The notes under the pieces: generated by a model
The model's input: only the letters and a program-made list of their open reading frames with translations
What the model was told of the DNA's origin: nothing
Database searches by the model: none
IMG/VR virus record: IMGVR_UViG_3300047160_006886
Span: 1 to 64,000 of that record
Strand: one strand, 5' to 3'
From: a virus
DNA: 64,000 nt
Program-made: the position numbers and the translations under genes
Part shown: one piece after another, positions 13,327 to 38,308 of the stretch
How positions within the stretch are numbered: position 1 is the first letter of the stretch
Layout of the letters: every line of letters starts with the position of its first letter

Positions 13327-14073
13327 CTAGTCACGCCGTTGCTGAGCGGCCGCCTTCTCGTGGACGTTGACGCCACCGAAGTCCCTGACCCAGTCAACCT
13401 CCTGCGGAGCCATCGACTGGTCCTTCCGCTCGTTCTCGGTCAGCCGCTGTCCGCCGCCGGAGTAGGAGAAGTTGGCAACGCCACCGCCGGCCGCACCGAG
13501 GTAGTTGGTGCCCATATACTTTGAGTACTCATCCTCTTCCTCATCGCCGCCGAGGCCGCTCCCTCGATTGACCAGCACCGGTCGCTGTACCAGCGATAGC
13601 ATCTCACGAAGTTCCTCACGGGACTTCTTCATGTACTTGTTGAAGAGGATCTTCTGCTGCTTGGGATCGGCGATATTTGAAACGATCTCCCGGACCATCG
13701 CAGCCCGCTCGTGTTTGTCGATAGCCATCGCATTGACGACTGCCGAGCGAACCTCTTCCGGAGCGTTCGTCTTCTGGAGCCAGTCAAGAGTGCGGCGGTT
13801 GCCGGAGAGTTCATACTCCTCCTTGACGCCCTTGCCGCCGGCCTGAGTCGGCCCGGAGTCGGCCCGCTGCTCACCCGGCTTCATGTCAAAGGAGTGGGTA
13901 GCTTCGCCCTTGTTCTTGCCGACGGTCCTGTCGCCCTCGTCGTTCTCGACATCGTCGTCATCGTCGTCGTCATCGTCATCGTCATCCTTGGCGTTGGCCA
14001 GGAGGGCTTGCCGGGTCCGCTCGCAGGAGCAGTTCTCGGCCAGCTCTCGAATTTGTCGCCGGGTCAATGGCAT
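13327..14073 (-). CDS. Nested in-frame scaffold protein (internal start)
   Basis: AAAGGAGA-ATCAGAC-ATG at 14073 (MPLTRRQIRELAEN...); analogous to lambda Nu3 nested in gene C. Confidence 0.6.
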   Translation of the reverse strand: MPLTRRQIRELAENCSCERTRQALLANAKDDDDDDDDDDDDVENDEGDRTVGKNKGEATHSFDMKPGEQRADSGPTQAGGKGVKEEYELSGNRRTLDWLQKTNAPEEVRSAVVNAMAIDKHERAAMVREIVSNIADPKQQKILFNKYMKKSREELREMLSLVQRPVLVNRGSGLGGDEEEDEYSKYMGTNYLGAAGGGVANFSYSGGGQRLTENERKDQSMAPQEVDWVRDFGGVNVHEKAAAQQRRD

Positions 14074-17000
14074 GTCTGATTCTCCTTTGCGAGAATGGGA
14101 CCCTGGTTTATAGGACATCTTCCACGCGGAAGGTCCAGTGAGTCGGAATTGTTGCTTATTGGTCTCGGCGTTGACGGTCACCTCGACCAGGTCTTCGCCA
14201 GTGATGTCCTTCGGCATCTCATCAAGGACGAGCTGTGCCGAGTTCATGGTCGCCTTGTGCATCGAGGCGGCCTTGCGATGGAGAGCGGCGGCATTATCGT
14301 GCTCGGTCGCTCCGTCGGCATTGCCGCTCTTCCGCTCCTTGGTCGCCGCCGTCTCGTGCATCGAAGCGGCCTTGAGATGAGCCGCGGCCGCCCCGGCACA
14401 GTCGTCAGCCGAAGAACACTCCAGAGCGTTCTTGGCATGGCCGAAGGCCCTGTTGTGTTCGGTGAGCAGCGAGGCACCGGCTGCCTGCTTGGTCGCTGCA
14501 TGTGCATCGTCTGGTCCGCCCATAGTACCTCCTGGAGCCATCTCGGCTAGTGTCTGATAGGTTGAATTACGACTTGGATTGAGAGTCGCTGAAGTTGAGT
14601 TCTTGGCATCGTCCTCTTCGTCTTCTTCCCAGTCCTTGTATTCAGGCAATGATCCCTTGTTGTCGAAGCCATGCTCCTTGACCCAATCGTGCCCGAACGC
14701 ATAATTGAGATACTTCCGCTGGGCCTCGGAGACTGCTGGGTTGATGACGAAGCCGGTCGAGCCATCAGCGTTGGTCACGGGCAGGAGTATCTGATCCTCG
14801 GGGACTCCCTTGGCAAGGGAAGCTGAGTTATGTGTCTCAGATTTAAGCCGAGCTGCTCCGGTATGTTGCCGTTGAGCATACCTATGATCTGCCTCAGCTG
14901 TCCTGTGTGCTTGACGAACTGCTTCACTGCTCGATTCCCTGCCAGCCTGTTCATGAGCAACCGCCGCTTGTCCGTGTGCTTCTGCCACGTCTTTGTGTCC
15001 TTTTGTGGTAAGGTCACTGCCGGCACGAGCATGACTTGCAGCCACGTTGGAAAACTCTTTGCCTTTTCCTCCCGCGTAAGTGGATGATTTGTGGGCTTTT
15101 GCTGAAGCTGCTCTAGCTTCCTTTGCCGCTTCTCTTGCCTCTTCGGACCAAGCATTCTCAGTCAGTTCGTTGTGCACCAATGCACGGTGAGCCATCGCCG
15201 CGCCCGAATGGGCGGCAGCTGCCTCCTGGTGGGCCTTCATCCCCTCGCCGCCCCGCATGGCAGCTGAGTTGTGCATTCTCGCTGCGTTGTCGTGGGCCTC
15301 GGCCGCACCGGCGTGGTCGCCGCTCTCAGCCAGGGACATCGCCCGGCCGGAGTGGGGATTCTGACTGCCAGCCGCTCCGGTCGCAGCGTGAGCCTGTTTG
15401 GACTCTTCTGCGGCCTGACGGGCTTCCTCAGTCCACACGTTACTGATTCGCTCACTCCGCCCAAGGGGACCCCCACCAACCCCGCCATACTCTGCATCCA
15501 TAGCCCTCTTCTGGTTCGTCTGCACGGCAGCGACCGAGTAGCCCGTCTTGATCGAGGACTTGGTCTCCGGGATGGACTTGGTGCCGGAATAGGTACCGCG
15601 GAAATATTGTTCCGGAGCGTGGCTGTCCTCGTCGCCAGCTCCGGCCAGTCCCTCCTGACCAACTCTCTGCACGGTCTCGATGATGCGGCCGTCGGGGGTC
15701 ATCTGCCTGCCGACCAGCTCGGCTGCGGCGTCGTTCTCGTCCAGCTCCTCGGACGGGGGCTCGAAGGCGGGGTGAGGACCGGAGCCTCGCTCCTTGCCAG
15801 GCCAGAGACCCGGAGTGATCACATTGCTCGTTGGAGCCTTCAGTCCAGCGGCCCTCATGTGAGACTTGGCGGCATCCAAGTGAGCCGAAAAGGCGTCGCC
15901 ATGAGCACCGCGCACATAACTCTCCATTCTTGGATGTTGTCCAGCTTCCATGTGAGCATTAGCGGCGTCTAAGTGCGCGCCAGCAGCTTTCTTGTGATCC
16001 TCAGCGGATTCCGCGTTCCGGCTCAATCTCGCTGCGTCGTCAGAATGGTCCGTGAACGATCTCCCCGCCCTACTTCCCTTCACAGAATCCGTATGTCCCT
16101 TGGCCTTGACGCTGGCCGCTCTCGCCGCCTGTGCTGCTTGTCTCGCTTCATCGGTCCACACGTTCTCGGTAACGTTCACGTCAGCCACGTCTCTGCCGGG
16201 CCAGAGTCCGGCGGTGACCTTGTTGGCGGCGAGGGAGAGGAGGTCGACGGTCTTCTCAAAGAGACTGGTCTGCTGGTTGTGCGTTCCTCCACCACTCAAG
16301 AGATCATAATGAGCTGCGGCCATCGTCTTGGCTTCAGCCGGCGAGCGAGCCGTTCCCAGATGGTGCCAGAGACCACCTCCGACTTTGCTTTGTGTGTTGG
16401 CGAAATGGACCAAGTATCCCGCATGCCGGCCACTCGAAGTCGTGGTCGGTGAAACGTGATACTCGCCGTGCTCTGTCCTAGTTGTGTAACCATACTTGCC
16501 TTCAGCGGCTCCGGTTCCACCCGCATGAGTTGACCACTCAAGCTTGCTCTTACCAGTTCTAGCACTTTTACGTGCCTCGATGGCTGCTTGTCGAGCCTCT
16601 TCCGTCCAAGTGTTCCCCGTCAGCTGCTCTGCTCCCCTCAGATCCTTGACCGGAGCCGCCGGCGTCTTCCTCGGCACGTCGTAGGTGCCCGGATCGGTCT
16701 CGCTGCCCATGTTGGTGTCTCCTCCCTTCTCGTAAGGTTCTCGCTTGGTGCCACTCCACGACTTCCGCAGGATGTCGGCGGCAGCCCGCTCCCGCATCAT
16801 CGAGTTCTCATGGCTGCGGGCGATGTGCTCCTGGCCGACCTCATTGTAAGCCTTGGCGGCGTCTTCGTGCATCTTGGCAGCTCCGAGATGGGCCTTGATG
16901 GCGTCGCCGAAATCGCTCTTGCCCTTGGCGGTCTCGCTCTGCCGTCCTGCTGCTTCGTGCAGGTCGCGGGCCTTGGCTCGTACTCGCTGATCCTTGGTCG

Positions 17001-18765
17001 CGTAGGTCTCGGCGGGAGCGGGAGTCACGTTGGCAGTCAACTTCTTGTATCTCGTTCCTGGGAACGATCCTGAAGGCTCGCCTCCCGTCATCCCGTTCTC
17101 CCAGACAAGATGATGGTGCCCTCCGGGTTGTTCCGTCGCCATCACATCTTTGCCAGTAACGCTGTCGTGATGCGTCGGCTTGAAGTCCACCTCGGTCGTT
17201 TCGACATGTGGATCGGCGTGGGACGAGTCCCAATGCTGGTAGAACTCCTTGGCATCAATGCTCGGCTTCAGGCCACGTTCTTTGACGTACTGCCCATAAC
17301 CAGCCTGCCGATCTCGCGTGTAGCTCTTGACTCTTTGTACCAGCTCACGGTCTGACAGCTCATTCGACGGGATCGGTCTCTTCACCGTGACGGTTTTGCC
17401 GGCCCCGCCAGTAGAAGCGAAACGGCCTCGTTCATCTCGTTCCTGTTCGGCGTTCTTCGCATACGAATGCTTCTCGAAGTCCGTGTGGATCTCGCCATGA
17501 CCCCTGACCGCCGCGTTGTGGGGCTTGCCCTGCCAGGAGCCATCATGATGCCGGGGCTGAGGCGGAGCAGCGGTGAAGGGCCGGCCCGAGAAGAGGGTCG
17601 AAGGATGGTGCTCTTCCTCGTCATCAGGGTTGACCACCAGATCGGTGTCGCCGGGAGACGTGCCCGAGAGGATCGCCGAGTCGGCCTTGTGACCGGCTCC
17701 CTTCTTGACCTGGATGCGGAGGGATTGATCGTCATCGCCACTGCCTTCGTTCTTTGTCATCTTGCTCCCCTCCTTTGAATGCTCGGAATAAGCTCGATTT
17801 GCTAGATCAATGGCATCGCGGAGGTCACCACCAGCATGCTCTTCCATCGCGTTGAAGAGGAGGGCCTGATACCAGTCCTCATAGTCGTGAGCACTTAAGG
17901 CGTCGTCGAGCAGCTTGGCTCGGTCAATGGCGTTCGTGGCGAACCGAAAGCCAGTTGCCGACTCTCGCAGTTTGTGAAGACCCTCTTTAACTCCGGCGGC
18001 CGACGAGAGACCTTTGGCTGCTTCTTTCGACCGAGAGATGCTCTCCTTAATGGCGTCCTTGGCGGCTCGATAGGTCTTGATTGGATTACGGGCAGCGGAG
18101 TAGAGGATGTAGGATGATGAGGCGGCCGGAGCCAGGCTGGCCAGGGTGCCGGCCGGACCCGCTCCGTGGCCGGCGATGGCGACGGGCTTGGCCAGCATGG
18201 TATCCCAGGTCGCCAGCGTGTTCTTTAGAGCCTTCGCCTCCTCCGGAGTCCGACCGCGAGCGACGGCCACCTTCTCAGCCAGGTTCTGCCCTGCGTGATA
18301 GGTCGAGAAGAGAGTGTCTTTGACAACTCTGCCGGCGAAGAAGGAGGCACGAACCGGACCCTGCATCGGCTTGGGCAACTTCGAGACCGCGGCCTCCAGC
18401 TTATCCTTGACCCAGGTCGAGGCCGCGTGCTCCATCGCCTGAGCATACTCTCGCGGCTTGCCGCCGACCAGCTTCGCCGCAGCCAGGGCCGAGCCGACCG
18501 ATGACAGGGGAGAGCCGAACGCTTCCATCCCATGAGGCAGGGTGTGGAATCCTTCGAGATGTTCCAGGCCGTGACCGGCGATCTCGCCGACCGTCTCGAC
18601 CGAGTGACCGAGGTGTCCGACCTCCGCTCCGACCGGGTGAGAAGAGTGTTCAGCCCCATGACCAGCCGCGACGTGGACCGGACTTGCCCCACCTCCCCCT
18701 TCGGATGAGAACCGCCCTGCCTCATCTCGCGGATGGTCTTCTTCCTCCCACTCAGCATTGACCAC
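13327..18765 (-). CDS. Giant scaffold/cargo polyprotein (1812 aa), in frame with the upstream protease across one UGA
   Basis: The C-terminal ~250 aa are scaffold-like (acidic tract, helical). The rest contains repeated N-xWT(E/D)EARQAA, RDExGRF and His/Ala-rich helical modules. No SD upstream of GTG 18765. Confidence 0.8.
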   Translation of the reverse strand: MVNAEWEEEDHPRDEAGRFSSEGGGGASPVHVAAGHGAEHSSHPVGAEVGHLGHSVETVGEIAGHGLEHLEGFHTLPHGMEAFGSPLSSVGSALAAAKLVGGKPREYAQAMEHAASTWVKDKLEAAVSKLPKPMQGPVRASFFAGRVVKDTLFSTYHAGQNLAEKVAVARGRTPEEAKALKNTLATWDTMLAKPVAIAGHGAGPAGTLASLAPAASSSYILYSAARNPIKTYRAAKDAIKESISRSKEAAKGLSSAAGVKEGLHKLRESATGFRFATNAIDRAKLLDDALSAHDYEDWYQALLFNAMEEHAGGDLRDAIDLANRAYSEHSKEGSKMTKNEGSGDDDQSLRIQVKKGAGHKADSAILSGTSPGDTDLVVNPDDEEEHHPSTLFSGRPFTAAPPQPRHHDGSWQGKPHNAAVRGHGEIHTDFEKHSYAKNAEQERDERGRFASTGGAGKTVTVKRPIPSNELSDRELVQRVKSYTRDRQAGYGQYVKERGLKPSIDAKEFYQHWDSSHADPHVETTEVDFKPTHHDSVTGKDVMATEQPGGHHHLVWENGMTGGEPSGSFPGTRYKKLTANVTPAPAETYATKDQRVRAKARDLHEAAGRQSETAKGKSDFGDAIKAHLGAAKMHEDAAKAYNEVGQEHIARSHENSMMRERAAADILRKSWSGTKREPYEKGGDTNMGSETDPGTYDVPRKTPAAPVKDLRGAEQLTGNTWTEEARQAAIEARKSARTGKSKLEWSTHAGGTGAAEGKYGYTTRTEHGEYHVSPTTTSSGRHAGYLVHFANTQSKVGGGLWHHLGTARSPAEAKTMAAAHYDLLSGGGTHNQQTSLFEKTVDLLSLAANKVTAGLWPGRDVADVNVTENVWTDEARQAAQAARAASVKAKGHTDSVKGSRAGRSFTDHSDDAARLSRNAESAEDHKKAAGAHLDAANAHMEAGQHPRMESYVRGAHGDAFSAHLDAAKSHMRAAGLKAPTSNVITPGLWPGKERGSGPHPAFEPPSEELDENDAAAELVGRQMTPDGRIIETVQRVGQEGLAGAGDEDSHAPEQYFRGTYSGTKSIPETKSSIKTGYSVAAVQTNQKRAMDAEYGGVGGGPLGRSERISNVWTEEARQAAEESKQAHAATGAAGSQNPHSGRAMSLAESGDHAGAAEAHDNAARMHNSAAMRGGEGMKAHQEAAAAHSGAAMAHRALVHNELTENAWSEEAREAAKEARAASAKAHKSSTYAGGKGKEFSNVAASHARAGSDLTTKGHKDVAEAHGQAAVAHEQAGRESSSEAVRQAHRTAEADHRYAQRQHTGAARLKSETHNSASLAKGVPEDQILLPVTNADGSTGFVINPAVSEAQRKYLNYAFGHDWVKEHGFDNKGSLPEYKDWEEDEEDDAKNSTSATLNPSRNSTYQTLAEMAPGGTMGGPDDAHAATKQAAGASLLTEHNRAFGHAKNALECSSADDCAGAAAAHLKAASMHETAATKERKSGNADGATEHDNAAALHRKAASMHKATMNSAQLVLDEMPKDITGEDLVEVTVNAETNKQQFRLTGPSAWKMSYKPGSHSRKGESDMPLTRRQIRELAENCSCERTRQALLANAKDDDDDDDDDDDDVENDEGDRTVGKNKGEATHSFDMKPGEQRADSGPTQAGGKGVKEEYELSGNRRTLDWLQKTNAPEEVRSAVVNAMAIDKHERAAMVREIVSNIADPKQQKILFNKYMKKSREELREMLSLVQRPVLVNRGSGLGGDEEEDEYSKYMGTNYLGAAGGGVANFSYSGGGQRLTENERKDQSMAPQEVDWVRDFGGVNVHEKAAAQQRRD

Positions 18766-18801
18766 TGCAGCGGCAACTGCCGCCCGGCCGTCCTTCGGTC
18801 A
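18759..18801 (-). promoter_or_regulatory. In-frame UGA with SECIS-like recoding hairpin (candidate)
   Basis: UGA at 18799-18801, then GCGGCA-GU-UGCCGC with the apical GU 22-23 nt downstream; lower UGACC/GGUCA pairing; codon context C-P-T-UGA. Confidence 0.5.
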
Positions 18802-19491
18802 GGTCGGACACTTGGGCTTCTTGCCGTTGCAAGTACAACCATTACTCCCGACCTTTCGATTCGCTACGACGCCGATTCCACAACCATCATTCACCGAGCA
18901 GGCCCCGATCTGACCGATGAGGACAGCCAGATGGTCGGGTCGATAGTTGCGAGCGATGTAGTCGAACGCCTGCCCCTTGTAATTCGCTCCCGGCAGGGCT
19001 CGTTCGTTATCCGTGTAGAGGCCGGTTGACAGCTCGGTCGGGATGCCGTTGGTCAGGTTGTGGTAGATCTGCTCCCGCTCTTCTCGATAAGGACGGAGGG
19101 GGTCCCGGAGCAGGGCGAGGTCAAACCAGGCGTTCGCTCCGAGCTTGCCGTTCATCGAGGACTCGGCGATGAAGCCTAGACCTTGGTTATTCCAGACATT
19201 CGGATCGAGAGAACCGTCGGATTTGTGAGCCGAGACGTTGGAACCGTCGCCGGCGAGGGGGTGGAAGAGGACCAGGGGCATCCCGTTCCAGTCCGGAGTC
19301 GAGTTGCGACACTCTTCTGCCGGGTAGAACAGCTTGCCCTTGGAGCCTTCAAGGACTTGAGGGACGATGATGGTGGCGGGAGCAACCAGGTACTCACGGC
19401 CATTGCGGATGGCCCGGCGAGCCTTGGTGACTTTGACGCCGAAGTTCAGGACGAGGATCTGACGGCGGTCGAAGATCTCGGCAGCATCCAT
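18799..19491 (-). CDS. Prohead maturation protease, DUF2213-like
   Basis: EYLVAP..II..QVL...LFYP.EE...WNG.PLV..HP, ELSTG and PDHLAVL...GACS motifs; upstream of scaffold and MCP. Confidence 0.85.
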   Translation of the reverse strand: MDAAEIFDRRQILVLNFGVKVTKARRAIRNGREYLVAPATIIVPQVLEGSKGKLFYPAEECRNSTPDWNGMPLVLFHPLAGDGSNVSAHKSDGSLDPNVWNNQGLGFIAESSMNGKLGANAWFDLALLRDPLRPYREEREQIYHNLTNGIPTELSTGLYTDNERALPGANYKGQAFDYIARNYRPDHLAVLIGQIGACSVNDGCGIGVVANRKVGSNGCTCNGKKPKCPT

Positions 19492-20099: not shown

Positions 20100-22307
20100 T
20101 CACGACTCCTCCAGATCCACAAAAAGCCGCACCTTCCCCTGATTGTGAATGTTGGCGTTCTTGTGAATACCTTTGACTATGTAAACCGTTCCGTGCCTAC
20201 CGATCAGCTCCTTCTCAGACTTGAACCCATCAGACGAAATGATGGGATGAACTCCCTTGGTCTTGATCCGTAGCAGTAGTTTACCATAAGAAAATCCATA
20301 GCTCGTCGACGGTGACAGACTCGTCCCATGTGGGGCAGTATCCACATATGTCCCGCCGACGCCCTGATCCTCAAGCTTCTTGATCAATTCGTCCGAGTAC
20401 GCTCCGTGGATGCCTCGATATACAGTTCCTGCATACGGAGGAGACTTATATACCGCACTAAGAAAGTTCTTCGTCGACTCGCTCTGCGTGCCCGTGGTGA
20501 CCTGATTTCGCATCGAACTCTGACTGCCGCCTTTCCAATGGGCAATGGCAGATCTTTCGGATGAACTGAGACTTGCTGCCCATTTCTCGTGCTGCTTCTC
20601 TTGTTCGGCCGTCATGCTCGACGATGTCAAATGGTGAGTTGCGCCGTCGGTAGTACCGGCGGCGATCTCTGCCTGTGTCATCGGTTTGACTGTCGCCGAT
20701 GGCTTACCGACCTCAACTCCAGCGGCACCGAAGTCCAGCTCCGATTCGTGATGGACCTTCGAGTACTTCGGAACTGAGATGCCCTTGGCGGCGAGCTTCC
20801 CAGGGGTGATCGAACTCTTCTTGATCACCGTTCCGGCCGGCAGAACCTTCCCGAGGTCCTCTATCTTCTTGGCATTGGCTCCCTTATCACCGGAGAACAT
20901 CGGCACCTTGATCACGCCGTTCTTGATCCCTTGTGGATTCAAAGCGCTAATCTTTGCCAGCTGCATGTGCGTGAATTGGACCGTTCCCTTGTTCTGAAAC
21001 AGATGCTTGACCAATCCGTTGGCAGAATGGAGTTGATGCTCTGTCGACGCCTGCGGATACGTCTGCGACTGTGTCGGAGTGTACGTCGGAGCCGGAGCCG
21101 GCTTGGGAATACCTGTTCCTTCTTTCTCCTTCAACCAGTTCTGCAAGCTATCAAACCGCTTGTCGACGATGGCACGCGTCTCCGGGTTCTTGATCGCTTT
21201 CAGCACGTCCATTTTCTTCGGCAGGATCTCCTTGATCTGTTCTTTGATCTCTTTATCCCCGATATGCCCGAACACACTCGCAGCACTCGGATTCAGACTC
21301 GAATTGCGAAGTGTACTTAGTTCGCCAACTTCAGACCCAAACTTGTGCCCCTTCGCCGCCCCTTGCGCCCTGTACAGCAACGCTCCTCCATTGTCGGCCC
21401 GCAAGGCAGTTCCGTCTTTGGTGATGAGAATGTTGTCCTTCGTCAGCCCTGCCACATCCCAATTAGCAAGTAGAGAATCAGCTACAAAGTGCTTGCCGAT
21501 CTGCTCATGCATCTTGGCAATGTCGGCGGGACTATGAGAGCTCTCGTATTCTGCGAGAGTTTGAACTCCCTCATGGTATTCGCTGACCTTGGCGATTCCC
21601 GTCGTTCCAGCAGCGGGAGCAATGCCGGACTTCGGGACTTTGACTCCAAGAGCGCGGTAAGCGTTGTCAGCATCCACCTCGTTGGCCAGTTGTAATTGCT
21701 TGGCTGGACTGCTCTTCACGACCCAGCGATTACCAGCCTCGTCTTCCATCAACTTCGGGCCAGTAGTTCCAGGCAGATCCTTGATGTATTTCATACCCTC
21801 CACTGGCGGCACATAGTCCGGTGGGAAATAAACAGGATGAGGCGTGCTCAGAGGAGCGACAGGCAGAGCGGGAGGAGCGACAGGCGTTGTCAATATCGTG
21901 CCTGGTTTCGATACTCCAAAGAATGCCCAGCCATTGACAGCGGTATCCGATCCCTTCACCGCCTTGGCTGCGGATGTCAGGCTGCCATATGTCTTATCAC
22001 CGATCTTGAAGCCACCGTGTACCACCTCTACCTTGAATGTCTGTCCTTTGTAGACCTTCTCGAACGATCCACCCACAGGAGGCAGAACCTGACCAGAAAC
22101 AGCTGCAGCACCGACGCCGCCAGGAGAGCAGCTTGGATCGACGCCCCCGCCGGGGCCGGTTGGACAGAACGCATTTATCACCGGGTCGTCCTGCTGATCC
22201 TCCCACTCCATCCAGAAGAGAGGATCGCTCTCATCAAGGTCAAACTCCTGCTCCGAGATGACTGGCCCGGATACGTGTCCGCGAAGAGCTGCTAATGTCT
22301 CACCCAC
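20100..22307 (-). CDS. Multidomain effector: tag + DUF2924 + HipA/PI3-4-kinase-like + ADP-ribosyltransferase
   Basis: NAFCPTGPGGGVDPSC tag; SLTSAAKAVKG...NGWAFFG; kinase VVK...NEV...NWD...DNIL...DNGG; ART YRG...GTS...EKE (R-S-E class). Confidence 0.8.
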   Translation of the reverse strand: MGETLAALRGHVSGPVISEQEFDLDESDPLFWMEWEDQQDDPVINAFCPTGPGGGVDPSCSPGGVGAAAVSGQVLPPVGGSFEKVYKGQTFKVEVVHGGFKIGDKTYGSLTSAAKAVKGSDTAVNGWAFFGVSKPGTILTTPVAPPALPVAPLSTPHPVYFPPDYVPPVEGMKYIKDLPGTTGPKLMEDEAGNRWVVKSSPAKQLQLANEVDADNAYRALGVKVPKSGIAPAAGTTGIAKVSEYHEGVQTLAEYESSHSPADIAKMHEQIGKHFVADSLLANWDVAGLTKDNILITKDGTALRADNGGALLYRAQGAAKGHKFGSEVGELSTLRNSSLNPSAASVFGHIGDKEIKEQIKEILPKKMDVLKAIKNPETRAIVDKRFDSLQNWLKEKEGTGIPKPAPAPTYTPTQSQTYPQASTEHQLHSANGLVKHLFQNKGTVQFTHMQLAKISALNPQGIKNGVIKVPMFSGDKGANAKKIEDLGKVLPAGTVIKKSSITPGKLAAKGISVPKYSKVHHESELDFGAAGVEVGKPSATVKPMTQAEIAAGTTDGATHHLTSSSMTAEQEKQHEKWAASLSSSERSAIAHWKGGSQSSMRNQVTTGTQSESTKNFLSAVYKSPPYAGTVYRGIHGAYSDELIKKLEDQGVGGTYVDTAPHGTSLSPSTSYGFSYGKLLLRIKTKGVHPIISSDGFKSEKELIGRHGTVYIVKGIHKNANIHNQGKVRLFVDLEES

Positions 22308-25300
22308 CGAGGTGCTCCTTCAGCAGTGCAGTCGTGTAATGAGCATCGAAGATCTTCGCCATCCCTGGATGTCGCTTGCGATAGCCCTCAAGGAACTTTC
22401 CGTCTCCACCCTCATACTTATCTCGGTATATCTCGCGGTGGTAGAGACGATAATGCTCAGCGAAATTCTCTTCCCAGTTGTCCAGACTACGACGACCGGC
22501 CACACCGTACTTTTCCTCGTACCATTCGTGAGGCATCTTAGTCTTGAGTCCGGCCGGGTCTGCTTTTACCCGGTCCATGACTTTCTTGTACTCATCGCTG
22601 ATGGCTTCGGTCATAGTGTTTTTGTTGCTGTAAGACGAACCACCCAGAGACCCCCGGAGGACATGCCCCAGCTCGTGCCTGTAGCTTCCTGGTCTGGTCG
22701 TCGAGCCAACCTCGATCTGACGTGATCCGAGATTGGCCAGGGCTTCACCGCCGAGAGCAGTCTTATGTACTGTGATCTTCGTCAGAGCGTCCAAGTCATA
22801 CTTCGGCGTATCACTGAACTCCTTCACTGGTCCGCCCGCAAGTCCACTCGTAATCTCCACAACTCGATTCGGATTTCCTCTGACGACCTGGGTCACGGCG
22901 TTCTCGACAGCACTACCAGACTTAAAGATAGAACCGGTCACCTTTGTTCGCATTTCCATATCCGATGACAGACCAGCCTTTAACTGCTCTTTCGAGTAGC
23001 CAGTATCTTTCGCTACTGACGACAGGACCGACCCCAAGCCATGTTCGGTAGTTGGCGACGGAGTGGTTACCGCAGGAGGAAGAGGGAGGAGAGACTGGGG
23101 AGCTGCTTTCGTCAGACCGAAGAACGCCCAGCCATTTATCGGCGTGTCAGTGCCCCGGACAGCCTTCGCCGCCGCAGTGAGACTCTTGTGAACTTTGTCT
23201 CCGATCTTATAGCCATCGTGCGTGACTTCAACTTTGATCTTCTGTCCTTTGTACGTTTTCTCAAACGTGCCTCCAACCGGAGGGTGGGGCTGACCCTTTC
23301 CGGGCGAACATGAGTTATCCTGACCTCCCCCAGGTCCGGTTGGACAAAAGGCATTATACGTTAGTGGTTCCTTACCTTTTGGATTGTAGACCTGTAATGC
23401 CCAGATGAATTTATGCCCGGCCTTTCTGAATTCGTTCACTCGATGGTGTCCGTCTTCAACTGACCATTTCGAGTGTTTACTCTCCTCCATCCCCTCCGGA
23501 ACGCCCTCGGTTATGACCGGCGGATGCAATCCAGATGGATTTTTCTTGATAATACTCGCTATGTCTTTTCTTGGTGGTGAGTCACCGATAGGATTCTCAG
23601 ACCCAGCTAGAGCACGAACAGGAACAGACACCAGTTTCCATTTCAGTTCTCTGATATTGCGAACATTACCTGCTTCAGCTTCCGAAACAGCATCTTCAAC
23701 CAGCTTCTTACTGGGGGGATCGTACTTTGGCTTCTCCGAATGAGAGCACGAAGGATCAACTCCTCCACCTTTTCCAGTTGGACAGAAAGCGTTCCACGTG
23801 TACCCCGGCCACGGGCACGCCGGCCACAACCGGGCTCCATCGGTGCCGAAGTGTCGGATGTTGAGGATCGACTTAGGCCGCGATGTCGAAAGTGGGGAAC
23901 CAGTGACCGCCCCGACCACCTTCAGTATCGTGCTGATGGCCGACTTCGACCGCTTCTGACCCTTGGTATCTTCGCCGACGTTGGCCGGAATCCAAGCGCA
24001 GCGACAATTCGGGTGCTGGGGCAACATGCCGCGAGCCTCGTCGGTCGTCAGGACCACCCCGTCGAGCTGTTCACAATCGGGACAGACGTCCTCATCGTCA
24101 GCAGTCGACCACTCGACGGCAGCGCCGACCTCTTCGATGCCCAGGGCGTCGAAGCCGTCGAGCTGCCCTTCGGCGTGGGCACGGATGATCTCGGTTCTGG
24201 CGATGGTCAGGGCCCTCTCGCGGCCGACGTCGACCGCCTTGGAGAGGTCACGGCCGATGTCTCTCGGAGACTGCCCCTGGACCAGCCCGTCGAGAAGGGT
24301 CCGAGACATCCTGATCGCCATCAGCTGGGTGACTCCATCCAGCTCGGTGAAAACCCTCCCGGCCAATTGCTTGACGCGGTCGATGGAGATTGGGTTGGCG
24401 AAGGCCGAGCGGAGGAACTGGGCCTTGGTTCCTTCGAAGAAGTCCATCGGTTCACCCATCGTCTGACCGAGGGCCTTCTCGGCGGCGGTGGCATCCTCGA
24501 ATGCCCTCCCCTGGCCCTTGGCGTACCCTTGCATGATGTACTGCTGCCAGAGCTGATCCATCGTCTGGCCGCGAATCTGCGACTGGACCTGCTGCTTGAG
24601 CCACGCCTTGAACGCCTCGACCTGTTCAGAGGTGGTGTGGAACTTCCAGCGAGTGTTGTCAATCAAAGCGTTGCGAGTCTGGGCTTTCACTCGAACCTCA
24701 GATCGTTCGGCATCTCTCGCTCTCTTTTCCATCTGATCTCGCGTCAGTTCATCTCTTTTATCGGTGATATCCCTAGCATGTTGCAGTTCGTGCCGCCAAG
24801 TCCGTCCTGCTTGATCCTTCAGTTCTGGATCAGTAAAAAGTATATGAGGAAGATTTACTCTAGCTCCACCTTTGCCATCTCCGAACGCTTGTGGCAATGC
24901 GTTCTTCAAGACATGAACAGTCACTCCGTGCATAGGAACGTGGGCTTCCCCTTCCAACCATTCTAGATACCTCTTCGCTCTAGCATTCCCAGCTCTCAGT
25001 TTGCCAGAACTCCTAACTTTTGGCGAACAGCTTGGATCAACTCCTCCGCCCTCGCCGGTGGGACAGAAGGCGTTGCGAGTGAGCGTATATTCCTTCATCG
25101 CAGGAAGATCTCTGACATCAACAGAGTATCCGTAGGACTTGCCAATCTCCTTGGAGATCCTGTCGTAGAACACCACTCGACTCGGCTCGCTCTTCGCGGC
25201 AGTGAACTCCATCGACCTCGGCTGCTTGTCCTTGATGAACTGACTCAAGGATGTCTGCACTCCTCGGAGCACCTTGATCGGAGACGTGTTCGGATCGTGA

Positions 25301-27534
25301 GTCATCAGAGACGTTCCTTCCGACGACCCTCGCTTGGACTCAAGTCCGAATCCTATGTCCCAGTGCCCTCCTCCTCCATGTTCTGCGTCGAAGAAGAACT
25401 GCCTATCTCCAACTTCAAACTTGGTGGAATATCGCAGACCATCATCCTTGACAATCTCGTGCCTCGAAGAGCAGCTGTTGTCTTCACCCCCACCTTCACC
25501 AGTTGCACAGAATGCATTGAGCACTCCATCCGCTCTCTTGCACTCCTCCCACGCCCTGGCGTACAGAGTCTTCGACCCCTCCTTTATCCGCCTGACCGCC
25601 TCAGCCTCGCCGGGGGTCATCTCCTCGCGCCCCTCATGCTCCATCGCCGCCTTGATAGCCCGGACCACGTCGTAGGCGTTGTGGTCTCGCTCCCGGGCAA
25701 TCCAGATCGGCTTGAGGCAGAAGATCACCTCGACGACGAAGCCGGAGGAGAGCCGGTAGTTAACCAGCAGGTCGCGGTAGCCGTTGGCCATCGGCTCCTT
25801 GAAGCGGTCCTTAGGTAGGCGAGCGAGAGAGCCGCCGGACTCCTCGACCCAAGAGAGGAGTTGATCGGCGGCGTCCCTCAGCTCCTGCATCGAGTCGGTC
25901 AGGACCGCCGCCCTGACGACATCGAGCAGCCGCGACCAGTCGCCGTCGTAGTCGCTCTTGACCTTCTCTTCGGCTCTCTCCTCCCCCTTCTGCGGGGCCA
26001 GGACGACGAGGCCGCCGGGCTTGTCCAGCTTAACCTCCAGGTCACCAAGTTCGAGATCCTGGTAGCGTACCATCGGATAACCCAGCTTAGCGAGCAGACC
26101 TTCCAGCTCATCCTGTCCTCCCTTGGCCATGTCTTTGAGGTCGTCGTAGTTGTCAGCATCGGAGATCGGCTGCTTCGGCTCGCCATAGACTTGCTCGACG
26201 ACCTCCGGCAGCAAGTCCTCCTCCCAGTCCTTGTCGCTCGTCGCATGGATCGACTTGTCATCAACATAGGCGACCGCCTCCATCTTCTTCTTGACCCCGT
26301 CATGGTCAATGCCCCACTCTTTGAGCTTCTTCCTGACTCCCGGCGGGTCGGGATTGGCGGTGAAGATGACAACCTTGAAGCCGGCTGCTCGCAGCTTCTT
26401 CAGTCCGTCCTTCGCTCCTTCCCTCAGAGTCATCCGATTGAAGTCGTGGACGCCGGGATCATTGGTGATGGTGCCGTCGAAGTCGATGCCAACCGTCCGC
26501 TGAGCATCAGGGACGGTGTTGAGAGCCGGCATCAGCGAGATGACGGTCTTCTCCCCGTCCGGGTCCGAGAAGACGAGGTCGGTCAGCGACATCTTCATCC
26601 TGGCCACGGAGTCGTCGCCTGTGTACTTCGGTCCCAGACCGGCCTTGACGTAGGCCAAGGTGACGTGCGGCGAGTATCCGGCGTGAGTCTCGACGTGGTC
26701 CAGGCTCGCCAAGAGGCGGTTCAGCCTCTCCAGCTCCGAGCTGACGACATCGATCTTCACCACGTCGGCACCGTCGCTGCTCTCGGTGGCCGGGAAGAAC
26801 GAAGTCTTGCCTAGCTCGATCTCGACGATGCCGAAGCCCGACACCAGCCGCCGGACCTCCTCCGGGTCCTTCGTGGTCAGGCCGTAGCGGACGGTCACGT
26901 GGATCTCATCCTCTTTGCCCTTCCCGGCCAAGTCGTCGTCGGCGATCCTGTCCTGCAGGGCGAGGATCTTCGGCAATGGATCGCCGGTCAGGTCGAACTG
27001 AGTTGAGGAATACCTGTGCTCACCTCCTTCACCAGTTGCACAAAAAGCATTATCCACGAACTCTGGTGACCAATCTTTGTAGGCAAACCCATCCACATCG
27101 ACGAAGCGACATGGCCCGCCCGGATAGTCCTGCTCGAAGCGGGAGCCGTCGGGGACGCCGTCGGGCAGGGGCATGAAGACGTTGACGGCGATGCGGAGGT
27201 TGCCGTTAGCTAGAGGGAGCGGCGGAGTCGCCATCCGCTGAGACCCGGCTTCCCTGCCGCTCCCCGACCCCGAGGTGAGGTTCGCTGTCGTTGTCTCCTT
27301 CAACCCCCTCAGACCAAAGGCGTCCTCGTCGACCACCAACTTGACGATCTGACCCTTGAGCCGGTCGAACTGCCGGCGGATCTTGGCGGCAAACTGGCGG
27401 CGGAGAGCCAGCGTCCGGGACGGGTCGATCCGGGACGGACTCTTCCGCCGCCTGGCATCCGTGCCGCCATGAGGAGACTTTCGGCGATTGATCGCTGCCC
27501 GCAGCTGGAACTTGCTCGGAGTGCGGATCTTCAT
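22300..27534 (-). CDS. MuF (SPP1 gp7-like) minor head polyprotein with multiple inserted effector domains
   Basis: MuF core IARTE...EWSTADD..VCPDC...PQHPNCRC; 2H HVT...HVT; HAD DFDGT; RelA/SpoT DVVR...GYRD; HELQH; DGHHR; DUF2924; HELGH...ENFAE. Confidence 0.9.
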   Translation of the reverse strand: MKIRTPSKFQLRAAINRRKSPHGGTDARRRKSPSRIDPSRTLALRRQFAAKIRRQFDRLKGQIVKLVVDEDAFGLRGLKETTTANLTSGSGSGREAGSQRMATPPLPLANGNLRIAVNVFMPLPDGVPDGSRFEQDYPGGPCRFVDVDGFAYKDWSPEFVDNAFCATGEGGEHRYSSTQFDLTGDPLPKILALQDRIADDDLAGKGKEDEIHVTVRYGLTTKDPEEVRRLVSGFGIVEIELGKTSFFPATESSDGADVVKIDVVSSELERLNRLLASLDHVETHAGYSPHVTLAYVKAGLGPKYTGDDSVARMKMSLTDLVFSDPDGEKTVISLMPALNTVPDAQRTVGIDFDGTITNDPGVHDFNRMTLREGAKDGLKKLRAAGFKVVIFTANPDPPGVRKKLKEWGIDHDGVKKKMEAVAYVDDKSIHATSDKDWEEDLLPEVVEQVYGEPKQPISDADNYDDLKDMAKGGQDELEGLLAKLGYPMVRYQDLELGDLEVKLDKPGGLVVLAPQKGEERAEEKVKSDYDGDWSRLLDVVRAAVLTDSMQELRDAADQLLSWVEESGGSLARLPKDRFKEPMANGYRDLLVNYRLSSGFVVEVIFCLKPIWIARERDHNAYDVVRAIKAAMEHEGREEMTPGEAEAVRRIKEGSKTLYARAWEECKRADGVLNAFCATGEGGGEDNSCSSRHEIVKDDGLRYSTKFEVGDRQFFFDAEHGGGGHWDIGFGLESKRGSSEGTSLMTHDPNTSPIKVLRGVQTSLSQFIKDKQPRSMEFTAAKSEPSRVVFYDRISKEIGKSYGYSVDVRDLPAMKEYTLTRNAFCPTGEGGGVDPSCSPKVRSSGKLRAGNARAKRYLEWLEGEAHVPMHGVTVHVLKNALPQAFGDGKGGARVNLPHILFTDPELKDQAGRTWRHELQHARDITDKRDELTRDQMEKRARDAERSEVRVKAQTRNALIDNTRWKFHTTSEQVEAFKAWLKQQVQSQIRGQTMDQLWQQYIMQGYAKGQGRAFEDATAAEKALGQTMGEPMDFFEGTKAQFLRSAFANPISIDRVKQLAGRVFTELDGVTQLMAIRMSRTLLDGLVQGQSPRDIGRDLSKAVDVGRERALTIARTEIIRAHAEGQLDGFDALGIEEVGAAVEWSTADDEDVCPDCEQLDGVVLTTDEARGMLPQHPNCRCAWIPANVGEDTKGQKRSKSAISTILKVVGAVTGSPLSTSRPKSILNIRHFGTDGARLWPACPWPGYTWNAFCPTGKGGGVDPSCSHSEKPKYDPPSKKLVEDAVSEAEAGNVRNIRELKWKLVSVPVRALAGSENPIGDSPPRKDIASIIKKNPSGLHPPVITEGVPEGMEESKHSKWSVEDGHHRVNEFRKAGHKFIWALQVYNPKGKEPLTYNAFCPTGPGGGQDNSCSPGKGQPHPPVGGTFEKTYKGQKIKVEVTHDGYKIGDKVHKSLTAAAKAVRGTDTPINGWAFFGLTKAAPQSLLPLPPAVTTPSPTTEHGLGSVLSSVAKDTGYSKEQLKAGLSSDMEMRTKVTGSIFKSGSAVENAVTQVVRGNPNRVVEITSGLAGGPVKEFSDTPKYDLDALTKITVHKTALGGEALANLGSRQIEVGSTTRPGSYRHELGHVLRGSLGGSSYSNKNTMTEAISDEYKKVMDRVKADPAGLKTKMPHEWYEEKYGVAGRRSLDNWEENFAEHYRLYHREIYRDKYEGGDGKFLEGYRKRHPGMAKIFDAHYTTALLKEHLGG

Positions 27535-28938: not shown

Positions 28939-29256
28939 TCAGGGTCTCTCGTGAATCTGATGCACTTTGCCCATATTGGCGAATGCGAACTTCTGCAATT
29001 CGGCCAGCCCCTCGACGGTGCCTCCGAACCGAATGTAGAGCTGCGAGTGATTGTACAGCTCCAAGTCATACGTCACCGCTTCGATGAACCAGTCGCCCCG
29101 ATCCGGCGGCGGGAGAACCAGAGAGTCCGGACTTCCCAGCATCCTCATGTCTGCCGCGGTCGCGGGGAGTATCTTGACCACCCCGCTGCCGATGGCTCCG
29201 ATGAGGCTCGACTTGGCGATCAGGCCCAAGAATCCGCGACGGTCCTGATTCATCAT
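28939..29256 (-). CDS. Twin-arginine (Tat) signal-bearing small protein
   Basis: MMNQDRRGFLG plus a hydrophobic h-region; ATGA overlap with the upstream gene. Confidence 0.65.
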   Translation of the reverse strand: MMNQDRRGFLGLIAKSSLIGAIGSGVVKILPATAADMRMLGSPDSLVLPPPDRGDWFIEAVTYDLELYNHSQLYIRFGGTVEGLAELQKFAFANMGKVHQIHERP

Positions 29257-30080
29257 GACAGAGTCTCCCTTTGCCGGAGAAGTTCTTCGTTGATGCGGTC
29301 GACCTCCTTCAAAAGCGGCGAGTCGTACTCGGCGATGAATGCTCTGATATCCTTGGGCAGGCAGCGGCCGCTGTAGCCGCGGTAGCCGTCCTTCATCACG
29401 GAGAGGTGGTGCATGCCGAACCAGGGTATCCTCGCCAGGGCGTACTCGATGCCGTCCCAGTCCGTGATGCCAACCTTCTGACAAGCGTCGTACATCTGGT
29501 TGCCGAAGATGGTCAGGGTGGCGAAGAGGCAGTTGACCGAGTACTTGACCATCTCCGCCGAGGCATTGTCAAAGAACATATGCTTCGCCGCCCAAGAGAA
29601 GAAGTTCGGATAGTCGTGGATAAACTTCCCTGCCAGTCGTCCGCCGACGACGACCATCCAGGGCCGCTTGGCGTCCTTCTCGGCAGTCCGCTCCGAGAGG
29701 AACTCCGGGAAGGAGACGATGTCAACTCCGTGCTGCTCAATCAGCCGCTTCGCCGTACCAGGGATGACGGTCGAGCGGATGACGAAGGGCATCTTCAACT
29801 GCTTGAAGTCGACGATGATCTGTTCGACGATGGAAGTGTCGCAGGACCCGATCCTCCGAGCGCTTGGATCGCCATCCGGGATGTCGTTGGGAATCTCGGC
29901 TGGTGGATTGAACTCCGGCGTTGGCACGCATATCCAGAGCCAGCCCTTACCGTCGGACTTCCGCGACATGTCCCGCAGGGCCTTGCTCACCTCACCCTGG
30001 TCGTAGCAGCTCTCCCGCGGGATCTTGAAGACCGCCGCGGTAGCCTTGCCGACCACTCCGTAACCGAACAATGCATCCAT
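29253..30080 (-). CDS. UDP-glucose/GDP-mannose 6-dehydrogenase family protein (lacks C-terminal UDP-binding domain)
   Basis: GYGVVG, CVPTP, RSTVIPGT, PEFLSE, AEMVKY..N and GYSGRCLPKD; only 275 aa. Confidence 0.85.
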   Translation of the reverse strand: MDALFGYGVVGKATAAVFKIPRESCYDQGEVSKALRDMSRKSDGKGWLWICVPTPEFNPPAEIPNDIPDGDPSARRIGSCDTSIVEQIIVDFKQLKMPFVIRSTVIPGTAKRLIEQHGVDIVSFPEFLSERTAEKDAKRPWMVVVGGRLAGKFIHDYPNFFSWAAKHMFFDNASAEMVKYSVNCLFATLTIFGNQMYDACQKVGITDWDGIEYALARIPWFGMHHLSVMKDGYRGYSGRCLPKDIRAFIAEYDSPLLKEVDRINEELLRQRETLS

Positions 30081-30083
30081 GAC

Positions 30084-30329
30084 TCAGGTCTCCTCCGTCA
30101 GAGGCTGATTGACAGCTGACATGTGATTGTACCGCTCCGAGATCAGCTCGTCGAGCTTCTGCCCCATCTCCCAGGTGACGACGTAGAGAACGATGCCGCC
30201 GCCGTAGTGGTCCGTCAACCGGATCTCCCGCTTACGAGCCCCGTCCTTCTCCATCACGTCAGCGATGAACTGGGGCAGGACCTCTCCCAACCGTTCGACG
30301 ATCTCCGGATAATACATCTTCTTGCTCAT
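30084..30329 (-). CDS. Hypothetical protein
   Basis: GAGGAGG RBS; ATGA coupling. Confidence 0.6.
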   Translation of the reverse strand: MSKKMYYPEIVERLGEVLPQFIADVMEKDGARKREIRLTDHYGGGIVLYVVTWEMGQKLDELISERYNHMSAVNQPLTEET

Positions 30330-31015
30330 GGTATCCTCCTCGATCTGACGCCCGACTGTCCATCGCCCCATATCTCCAGACCGAACCGCTTGATGACGTC
30401 GGGGTGCTTGCGGGTGCCTTCGTCATCGTGCCACCGCAGGAGCAGATCTCGCTCGAACAGCTCGCCCCAGGCCCCCGGCATGCTGGGGTCCATGAAGTAG
30501 AACCAGTTGCCCCGCCAGCCGACGGCGACCACGTCGTGACCGTTCTTGTTCTTGTCGTAGGTCGCCGGGTTGCCGTATGCCTGGATCGAACAGATGACGT
30601 TGTGGCCCTTGTCGATCATCAACCGCAAGTCAGCCGGGGCGATGTCGTCGTGGACCTCGACGTGGAGGCCGAGCGACTTGCAGTAGTGGACGATGTCCTC
30701 GTAGAGCGTGCCGTTCGCCTTGGTAGTCCGGACCTCGCGCTCGACCTCGGCGAAAGTCCGCTTGCCGACTCCCCAGCGTGAAGTCACCGAGAGGGTACAG
30801 GCCGCCCCGCAGCCGTCGCTGTCGAGCTGCTGGACCTGGGGAACCGGAGCCTTGATGTCCTTGGTCAGGACCGGATCGTTGGTCAGAGCGTCCAGCGGCG
30901 ACGAACCGATCCGGTCCTGCGACGGAGCCAGCAGGCAGAGATAGGCAAGCGGGATGCAGACCCACGGCACCCAGCTGCTCCAGAACAATCTCATGAATCG
31001 TCCGGATCGACTCAT
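30326..31015 (-). CDS. Exported C39-like (papain fold) cysteine peptidase
   Basis: Q.....CGAAC, GHDVVAVG and FMDP catalytic motifs; N-terminal hydrophobic segment. Confidence 0.8.
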   Translation of the reverse strand: MSRSGRFMRLFWSSWVPWVCIPLAYLCLLAPSQDRIGSSPLDALTNDPVLTKDIKAPVPQVQQLDSDGCGAACTLSVTSRWGVGKRTFAEVEREVRTTKANGTLYEDIVHYCKSLGLHVEVHDDIAPADLRLMIDKGHNVICSIQAYGNPATYDKNKNGHDVVAVGWRGNWFYFMDPSMPGAWGELFERDLLLRWHDDEGTRKHPDVIKRFGLEIWGDGQSGVRSRRIP

Positions 31016-38099: not shown

Positions 38100-38308
38100 G
38101 ATCGCGGATCTCCTCCGTGCTCCAACTCCTTGTCGACCTGCCACTCGCAGTTGGCCCACCTCGCTACGTTGGTCCTCTGCAACTCGAAGCAAGCGATACA
38201 CATCGGGGCCGGGTAGATCTCAAAGCCATTGCGGAAGATGGTCATGTCCGGGAAGGTCTCGGCCATCATGCCGCAGCGAAGGCAGGGTTCAGCAGGGCGG
38301 ATGGTCAC
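38096..38308 (-). CDS. Small zinc-finger protein
   Basis: CLRC...CIAC; coupled to the portal stop. Confidence 0.55.
   Translation of the reverse strand: MTIRPAEPCLRCGMMAETFPDMTIFRNGFEIYPAPMCIACFELQRTNVARWANCEWQVDKELEHGGDPRS

Follow-up and report, generated by a model that had tools for sequence, protein, structure and literature searches.

A recurrent cysteine-glycine tag between the modules of polyvalent phage head proteins, a putative prohead-protease junction with an invariant core

We analyzed the first 64,000 bp (positions 1-64,000, hereafter the window) of IMG/VR record IMGVR_UViG_3300047160_006886, an uncultured phage genome of 111,990 bp and 93% completeness. Here, we describe a 17-residue cysteine-glycine tag that separates the domains of two proteins translated from overlapping minus-strand open reading frames (ORFs): P0001, a polyvalent head protein of 1744 residues (22300-27534), and P0002, a second cargo protein of 735 residues (20100-22307). 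Sequence comparison suggests that P0001 and P0002 are polyvalent head cargo, that the tags are composite junctions cut by the phage's own prohead protease and that the modules are injected; we give this reading a probability of roughly 0.6. In the putative mechanism, the left flank of the tag ([TV]-x-N-A in this phage) would be the recognition site of the DUF2213-family protease encoded 0.6 kb downstream, and a 14-residue core with its Gly/Ser linker would form the start of the next module. The string of modules would enter the procapsid by fusion to a head-assembly protein, namely, MuF in this phage and the portal protein or the protease in others. During maturation, the protease would cut the -2/-1 bond, between the -2 residue and the core, and the freed effector modules, with the core at their new N-termini, would later be injected along with the DNA.

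The first-pass annotation had listed six copies of the tag, and a regular-expression scan of P0001 and P0002 recovered all six at the same coordinates, five complete and one truncated, all on the minus strand. Copy 1 (27001-27051), which heads the 2H cassette, is decayed; it keeps the flank and the first half of the core (matching N-x-F-C-x-T-G-x-G-G), loses the register after G-E-G-G and lacks G-G-G-x-D-x-S-C. The complete copies in P0001 are copy 2 (25468-25518, flank V-L-N, core variant E-D-N), copy 3 (25024-25074, flank T-R-N, core variant V-D-P), copy 4 (23743-23793, flank T-W-N) and copy 5 (23305-23355, flank T-Y-N, core variant Q-D-N), and copy 6 (22125-22175, flank V-I-N) lies in P0002. 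Two core sub-variants are found within this genome, [EQ]-D-N-S-C in copies 2 and 5 and V-D-P-S-C in copies 3, 4 and 6. A degenerate DNA pattern for the core matched the five complete copies and nothing more in the 64 kb of the window or elsewhere in the 111,990-bp record, and it gave 0 matches in 100 shuffles; none of the six copies is expected by chance.

Each copy heads another domain, as had been claimed: in order, 2H/HAD, an unassigned domain, HExxH with MuF, a ParB-like domain, DUF2924 with HExxH, and DUF2924 with an ADP-ribosyltransferase (ART). The full series of cassettes in P0001 comprises 2H phosphoesterase, HAD-like, RelA/SpoT-like, unassigned, HExxH, MuF core, ParB-like, and DUF2924 plus HExxH domains. 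The Pfam matches in P0001 are 2H, HAD (weak), MuF and DUF2924; the RelA/SpoT-like label was assigned by eye only, and the domains bearing the two HExxH motifs had no Pfam match at E ≤ 1. P0002 consists of a 44-residue leader, the tag, DUF2924, a kinase-like region without a Pfam match and an ART (Pfam: DUF2924 and ADPrib_exo_Tox). P0001 has a split MuF domain. The N-terminal helix of this domain (residues 37-75; 27256-27447, minus strand) and its core (Pfam Phage_Mu_F, residues 1079-1181; 23794-24654, minus strand), the presumed carrier into the procapsid, are approximately 880 residues apart with three cassettes between them, and the core resumes near residue 955. In two relatives (L037 and L086), a tag stands directly after the MuF N-terminal helix. 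Additionally, some minus-strand junctions in P0001 show the Asn flank and no core. At 24646-24681, T-R-N followed by A-L separates the first HExxH cassette from the MuF core and is a candidate flank-only cleavage site or decayed tag; at 26509-26529, A-L-N followed by T-V lies between 2H and HAD; and A-V-N followed by V-F-x-P at 27157-27192 may be a further decayed tag, which is a weak call.

Each tag is composed of a genome-specific left flank, an invariant core, F-C-[PA]-T-G-x-G-G-G-x-D-x-[ST]-C, and a Gly/Ser-rich linker. Among 185 unique copies, the -2 residue was R or N in 86% and the -1 residue was A, G or V in 89%; position 2 was P or A in 92%, position 9 was V or I in 87%, position 11 was N or P in 95% and position 14 was G or S in 90%, with a Gly/Ser-rich tail following the core. 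In tags with Asn at -2 (N-type), positions 9 and 11 were coupled, V/I occurring with P and Q/E with N (p = 5e-10); unlike these, phages with Arg at -2 (R-type) pair V/I with N. An AlphaFold2 (AF2) model of a 30-residue tag was a loop without regular secondary structure, with a predicted local distance difference test score (pLDDT) of 76 overall and 85 for residues 11-20. In large proteins with an N-terminal tag, the leader before the -2 residue is in some cases only 3-8 residues long.

The tag occurs widely and is virus-restricted. The core DNA pattern occurred in at least 119 IMG/VR stretches, with up to 7 copies per 8 kb, and among 185,579 species genomes it was found in only four stretches, all contigs of metagenome-assembled genomes (L125-L128). 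Since the tag is nearly absent from cellular genomes, phages that carry it seldom, if ever, exist as integrated prophages. At E ≤ 1e-3, a profile built from 150 tag windows matched 1,496 representative clusters, and at 1e-10 it still matched 420; single proteins contained as many as 10 tags. Successive tags were a median of 262 residues and a minimum of 78 residues apart, corresponding to one domain or a few. Among cultured phages, a tblastn search with P0001 returned distant single-domain matches only, and a 23-residue tag query gave no match, which is a weak test with the low-complexity filter on. Searches for relatives of the window close enough for mapping recombination junctions in the DNA found none, the best identity in a MuF-core search being 38%.

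The flank is a property of the genome. The -2 residue was uniform in 52 of 56 contigs with at least two tags, and the four exceptions combined K with R or F with Y. Flanks fall into N-type ([TV]-x-N-[AV], including the window), R-type (E-x-R-[AG]) and rarer K, L and F/Y classes. When 32 long records were compared, the profile of the window's DUF2213-family protease matched 15 of 17 N-type records but none of the 14 others, and Peptidase_S78 matched all nine R-type records (E 1e-31 to 1e-39), both K-type records (weakly) and no N-type record. Fisher tests of this covariation gave p = 5e-7 for the DUF2213 family and 1e-8 for S78, values that overstate the independence of the records. T4-type Peptidase_S77 gave no match, but the control genomes were silent too.

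Three further observations are independent of how lineages are counted: the predicted capsid-protein site, the fusions of proteases to tags, and the ends of ORFs. Firstly, the tag flanks repeat the signature of predicted maturation sites in the capsid proteins, [TV]-x-N-A matching V-x-N-A-T and E-x-R-[AG] matching [ED]-x-R-[AV]. The Asn of V-x-N-A-T is invariant in all 67 capsid homologues from phages with a DUF2213 protease and lies right at the border of the capsid protein's conserved core, and all 23 R-type capsid proteins have [ED]-x-R-[AV] approximately ten residues before the Gly pair of the N-arm. The S78 protease of HK97 cuts its capsid protein at K103/S104 (PMC10275583), which fits a basic P1 residue, and the R-type [ED]-x-R-[AV] sits at that place. 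In the window, the major capsid protein (438 residues, DUF6260-like; 11381-12697, minus strand) carries V-F-N-A-A, a predicted maturation site with Asn at residue 93 (12413-12427, minus strand). The same Asn flank without the core starts the repeated modules (x-N-[AVT]-W-[ST]-[DE]-E-A-R) of a 1812-residue scaffold-like ORF (13327-18765, minus strand); across N-type loci, the scaffold repeat W-[ST]-D-E-A-R was preceded by x-N in 8 of 8 cases, and this repeat was not seen in R-type loci.

Secondly, DUF2213 protease domains are fused directly to a tag in P0020, L049 and L046, and in P0020 the conserved end of the domain itself provides the -2 Asn; in L096, a scaffold-type repeat takes the place of the tag after this domain. 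S78 domains are fused to tags in R-type L016, L031, L079 and L099, with the first tag within approximately 35 residues of the domain. Thirdly, six of 11 R-type protease-cargo ORFs end exactly at the -2 residue, three run one residue further and the fit is poorer for the other two; a helix resembling the pre-tag helix precedes these ends. A gene end that matches the junction of fused relatives is a classical mark of a cleavage site. The flank covariation, the capsid-site match, the fusions and the ORF ends are, taken together, best read as cleavage of the -2/-1 bond by the prohead protease. It had been proposed that cleavage would turn the tag into a new N-terminus; the genome-specific -2 residue, the protease covariation, the capsid-site match and the ORF ends, all comparative in kind, support this for the core.

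We also noted the architecture of the R-type protease ORFs. Those of L009, L016, L031, L079 and L099 begin with a conserved unassigned domain starting P-E-K-Y-S-H, followed by S78, a tag, a YMGG-like Gly-zipper cassette (a weak Pfam match in 2 segments, E 5.5e-4), another tag and a conserved W-S-K-G-D domain; L050 and L099 contain an additional P-loop-like insert. The pre-tag helix of L016 and L031, Q-E-F-I-A-E-R-R, resembles the capsid targeting sequence of T4 IPIII, a likeness that serves as a lead rather than as evidence.

The product of 18799-19491 (minus strand, 230 residues) is taken to be a prohead protease with an assemblin fold, as suggested by its homologues and its AF2 model. Many of its 104 homologues match Pfam DUF2213 (PF09979), and the window protein itself had no Pfam match at 1e-3. 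His77, Ser155 and His187 are invariant among the homologues. The AF2 model (pLDDT 87.6) was most similar to T4 gp21 (5jbl; Foldseek probability 1.0, VIA Z 10.2, root-mean-square deviation 3.3 Å over 139 residues), and approximately 28 herpesvirus assemblin entries came next with Z values of 5.4-7.5. A PDB sequence search with the protease and a single-sequence homologue search found nothing, and the predicted relation between the DUF2213 family and S78 rests on the fold. In the window, the protease ends with C-P-T (18799-18813) and a TGA stop, beyond which the same frame leads into the scaffold ORF. Among the 104 homologues, 15 end with [DP]-x-C-P-T and a stop and seven end with G-C-G-D-G-G and a stop, these ends having been noted within P0006-P0070. 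C-P-T corresponds to the first half of the tag core (C-P-T-G), and L140 continues in frame as P-C-P-T-G-G; such ends could represent readthrough, a decayed tag or a product-like C-terminus. One homologue, P0093, is encoded in the chromosome of Pirellula staleyi DSM 6068.

The domains around the tags show a polarity. Those downstream of tags are highly variable, as had been expected, with 42 Pfam families in 149 segments. These are mostly effectors and include ART-PolyVal, exoenzyme ARTs, pentapeptide repeats, sigma-70, zeta toxin, topoisomerase IB, Ntox46, HNH, GGACT and 2H, along with MuF in six segments and two portal families in one segment each. The proteins that carry tags are also head-module proteins, in line with the same expectation: a portal, S78 or MuF domain lay within the 330 residues upstream of 44 of 146 tags (Phage_portal 16, Peptidase_S78 16, MuF 8, other portal families 4). 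Therefore, head-assembly proteins are the N-terminal carriers and effectors are the C-terminal cargo. In R-type L068 and L060, the portal protein bears C-terminal cargo domains through tags; portal-borne cargo would mean a fixed dose of 12 copies per virion before cleavage.

Several points weigh against processing by the prohead protease. The flank-protease covariation comes from only approximately five lineages, and shared ancestry could produce it. L-type and Y-type phages had neither a DUF2213-family nor an S78 protease, and searches for ClpP and S49 found none in L-, Y- or K-type phages, which leaves the L- and Y-type flanks without a matching enzyme among these families. An hhalign comparison of the DUF2213 family with S78 gave a probability of 1.3%, that is, no sequence link. 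Neither P0001 nor P0002 has an Asn flank as its C-terminus. The search pattern itself prescribed most of the core (the F, C, T, G, D and second C positions), so the invariance of the core arises partly by construction, and the profile search that yielded 1,496 clusters was seeded from the same pattern-ascertained set. A simple cleavage-site model leaves the 14-residue invariant core unexplained. Finally, our searches found no tag-bearing cultured phage.

According to the polyvalent-protein model of 2017, zincin-like metallopeptidase cassettes would cut the tags, either in cis or after injection. This processing role was proposed by Iyer et al. (PMC5512222), and P0001 contains two HExxH domains; moreover, HExxH was present in 62 of 149 multi-tag proteins compared with approximately seven expected by chance. 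However, most multi-tag proteins lack HExxH, and so do 82% of the tag-bearing ORFs in IMG/VR loci. A zincin in the cargo would explain neither why the flank tracks the protease nor why it matches the capsid signature, and stand-alone proteases are themselves fused to tags. We therefore consider zincin processing unlikely.

The tag could also remain uncleaved, serving as a structural hinge or as a metal- or disulfide-binding knob that links modules or anchors them in the capsid. The two Cys, the Asp and the Thr are invariant in the core, Cys-rich tails occur in DUF2213-family proteases, the AF2 peptide model of moderate confidence shows no regular secondary structure, and the coupling of positions 9 and 11 suggests a defined conformation. 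Nevertheless, an uncleaved tag does not account for the genome-specific flank, the match with the capsid site, the ORFs ending at -2 or the leaders of 3-8 residues, and we regard it as improbable to a similar degree. A knob and cleavage may coexist, as the core could act as a knob at the new N-terminus.

Self-cleavage would require either Asn cyclization or an N-to-S acyl shift at the F-C bond. Asn cyclization is the mode of self-cleavage of nodavirus or reovirus coat proteins, this lineage has an invariant Asn, with Ala after it, in both its capsid protein and its tags, and Cys follows Phe in every core. However, other phages have Arg, Lys, Leu or Tyr/Phe at -2 in the same architecture, and none of these residues could serve as an Asn lyase. 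In addition, the Asn flank is found together with one particular protease family, and there is no folded domain around the site. Thus, self-cleavage is very unlikely.

The first-pass annotation further suggested that the cassettes are exchanged at the tags, and codon usage is in agreement with this suggestion. As it had stated, codons ending in A or T are more common in several cassettes than in the MuF core. The G+C content at third codon positions (GC3) was 0.82 in the MuF core and the N-terminal part of P0001, compared with 0.39-0.42 in the first HExxH cassette, 0.32-0.42 in the ParB-like cassette and 0.55-0.69 in P0002; the core genes of the phage range from 0.67 to 0.87. GC3 change points in P0001 fell at codons 667, 830, 962, 1249 and 1336, with tags at 673, 821 and 1248 and the core-less Asn junction of 24646-24681 at 955. 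Four of the five change points lie 1-12 codons from a tag or core-less junction (random placement, P = 0.002), the distances being six codons for copy 2, nine for copy 3, one for copy 4 and seven for the core-less junction. Whole cassettes also move between proteins. The 2H cassette occurs at differing positions in at least 12 other polyvalent proteins and each time ends a few residues before a full tag, whereas the corresponding end in P0001 is the core-less A-L-N then T-V. The kinase-ART part of P0002 is a C-terminal cassette after a tag in polyvalent proteins of five other clusters. R-type relatives whose protease domains are 63-82% identical differ by whole units of tag plus cassette. Hence, GC3 change points and whole-cassette insertions and deletions coincide at the tags, and cassette borders lie there.

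These borders might be taken to mean that the tag is kept mainly as DNA, a recombination site similar to VENN whose peptide has no function. The GC3 change points favor this idea, as do the R-type phages that differ by tag-bounded cassettes and the recurrence of the same cassettes in different orders elsewhere. The DNA itself does not support it. Copies in the window are 65-78% identical with exact runs of 5-14 nt and diverged synonymous sites, so the part of the earlier proposal that treated tag DNA as a homologous crossover site is not supported. Across 232 within-genome tag pairs, the longest shared run averaged 11 nt, 5.6% of pairs reached 20 nt, and third-position identity at identical residues was 0.53, indicating selection on the peptide. 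Borders at tags are expected anyway, since only in-frame joins that respect domains survive. Because the tag DNA is poorly conserved, it is the peptide that is maintained, and exchange at tags would require microhomology at most; we give a DNA-only role an even smaller probability than self-cleavage. The least probable alternative is that the C39-like peptidase encoded at 30326-31015 (Peptidase_C39_2, E 1e-8) cuts after the G-G-G run of the core in the manner of double-glycine leader peptidases, as C39_2 is itself a cargo cassette in other phages and no double-glycine leader helix pattern is present. We rejected this peptidase as the processing enzyme, with relatives in only 4 of 119 listed tag loci.

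The same core occurs with unrelated protease families and is absent at the capsid and scaffold sites, so the protease does not recognize it. Some large proteins begin with the core after a leader of as few as 3-8 residues, and a free N-terminal core thus seems to matter. Candidate roles include that of a signal for loading, retention or ejection, that of a knob that binds metal or forms a disulfide, and that of an adaptor presenting the scissile bond. Our best guess is a cargo-specific loading, retention or ejection peptide; the first-pass annotation had raised the possibility of a packaging or ejection signal with a two-Cys loop. A more ambitious proposal, which we put forward tentatively and hold to be less probable than not being so, is that the core is a lineage-independent address peptide that, once the maturation protease has exposed it at the N-terminus, either retains its module inside the capsid or guides the module to the host by way of the portal and tail. 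In that case, the core would be transferable to any protein for loading and injection, and injected effectors could be read straight from metagenomes as everything after a tag.

The genes around P0001 and P0002 form a one-strand head module with the portal gene, small genes, P0001 and P0002, the protease, the scaffold-like ORF and the capsid protein. The portal protein (1122 residues) is encoded at 38305-41673 on the minus strand, and its presence in the same region places the tags in a head-morphogenesis module. Between the portal and the polyvalent genes lie the C39_2-like gene and a truncated UDP-glucose dehydrogenase-like gene (29253-30080). Approximately 93 residues of the capsid protein precede its invariant Asn and resemble a propeptide, in addition to the separate 1812-residue scaffold-like protein.

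Part of this picture is already known, namely, polyvalent proteins with their effector repertoire (PMC5512222) and the targeting of cargo and its trimming by prohead proteases in T4 and giant phages (PMC9026906). In literature searches of incomplete coverage, we found no description of the delimiter, of the relation between flank and protease or of an Asn-specific assemblin-fold protease, and the string 'FCPTG' retrieved unrelated parechovirus papers only. To our knowledge, Asn specificity has not been reported for the assemblin fold. Polyvalent phage proteins are thought to be the first weapons injected, and how they are packaged and separated has so far been guesswork. With the tag, the head cargo and early effectors of uncultured phages become listable as whatever follows a tag; the catalogue so far holds ARTs, 2H/Acb1-like enzymes, sigma factors, topoisomerase IB, zeta toxins, pentapeptide proteins and nucleases. 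Mechanistically, a prohead protease and not a zincin would carry out the processing, including a predicted Asn-specific protease of the assemblin fold. Furthermore, the tag might be portable for loading proteins into capsids, and it shows how whole effector cassettes pass between phages that differ in GC content.

Among known systems, polyvalent proteins (PMC5512222) are the same in placing disparate effectors (2H, ART, ParB-like, RelA/SpoT-like and MuF, with candidate zincins here) on one polypeptide of the head module with predicted DNA co-injection. P0001 and P0002 likewise each combine disparate activities in one chain and are flanked by head genes on the same strand. In contrast to our model, that study assigned processing to zincins and described no inter-domain delimiter, the words 'cysteine' and 'linker' being absent from it; by comparison, we define a conserved delimiter and implicate the prohead protease. 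MuF polymorphic toxins (Jamet 2017) have an N-terminal MuF, a single C-terminal toxin and a temperate phage or prophage as their source, and the study makes no mention of linkers, cleavage or motifs. P0001 differs in that its MuF is split and central with cassettes on both sides, and its contig is that of a free virus. VENN and pre-toxin delimiters of contact-dependent inhibition and polymorphic toxins (PMC3482391) are also conserved peptides before variable, horizontally exchanged domains, but there is one per toxin, at the tip, and the DNA-level homology assumed for VENN is not seen in the tags. MARTX toxins offer a functional analogy only; several effector domains are freed by proteolysis at inter-domain linkers after delivery, but by an internal cysteine protease domain at loose Leu sites, and these are secreted bacterial toxins rather than virion cargo. 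Encapsulin cargo-loading peptides are, similar to the tag, short conserved terminal peptides with a flexible linker on diverse enzymes inside an HK97-fold shell, but they lie at the C-terminus, do not depend on cleavage for their exposure, and bind the shell at a known site. The internal proteins of T4, whose capsid targeting sequence is cut by gp21, and the phiKZ and SPN3US ejection proteins (PMC9026906, PMC10052503) are prohead cargo trimmed at a short motif shared with structural proteins, and the junction motif of the cargo described here is likewise the predicted site of the capsid protein. Those cargos carry N-terminal propeptides of approximately 10 residues, and T4 uses one gene per cargo and leaves nothing conserved on the mature protein. 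Unlike T4, the phages described here string many cargos on one carrier, and each cargo would keep an invariant 14-residue peptide across protease families.

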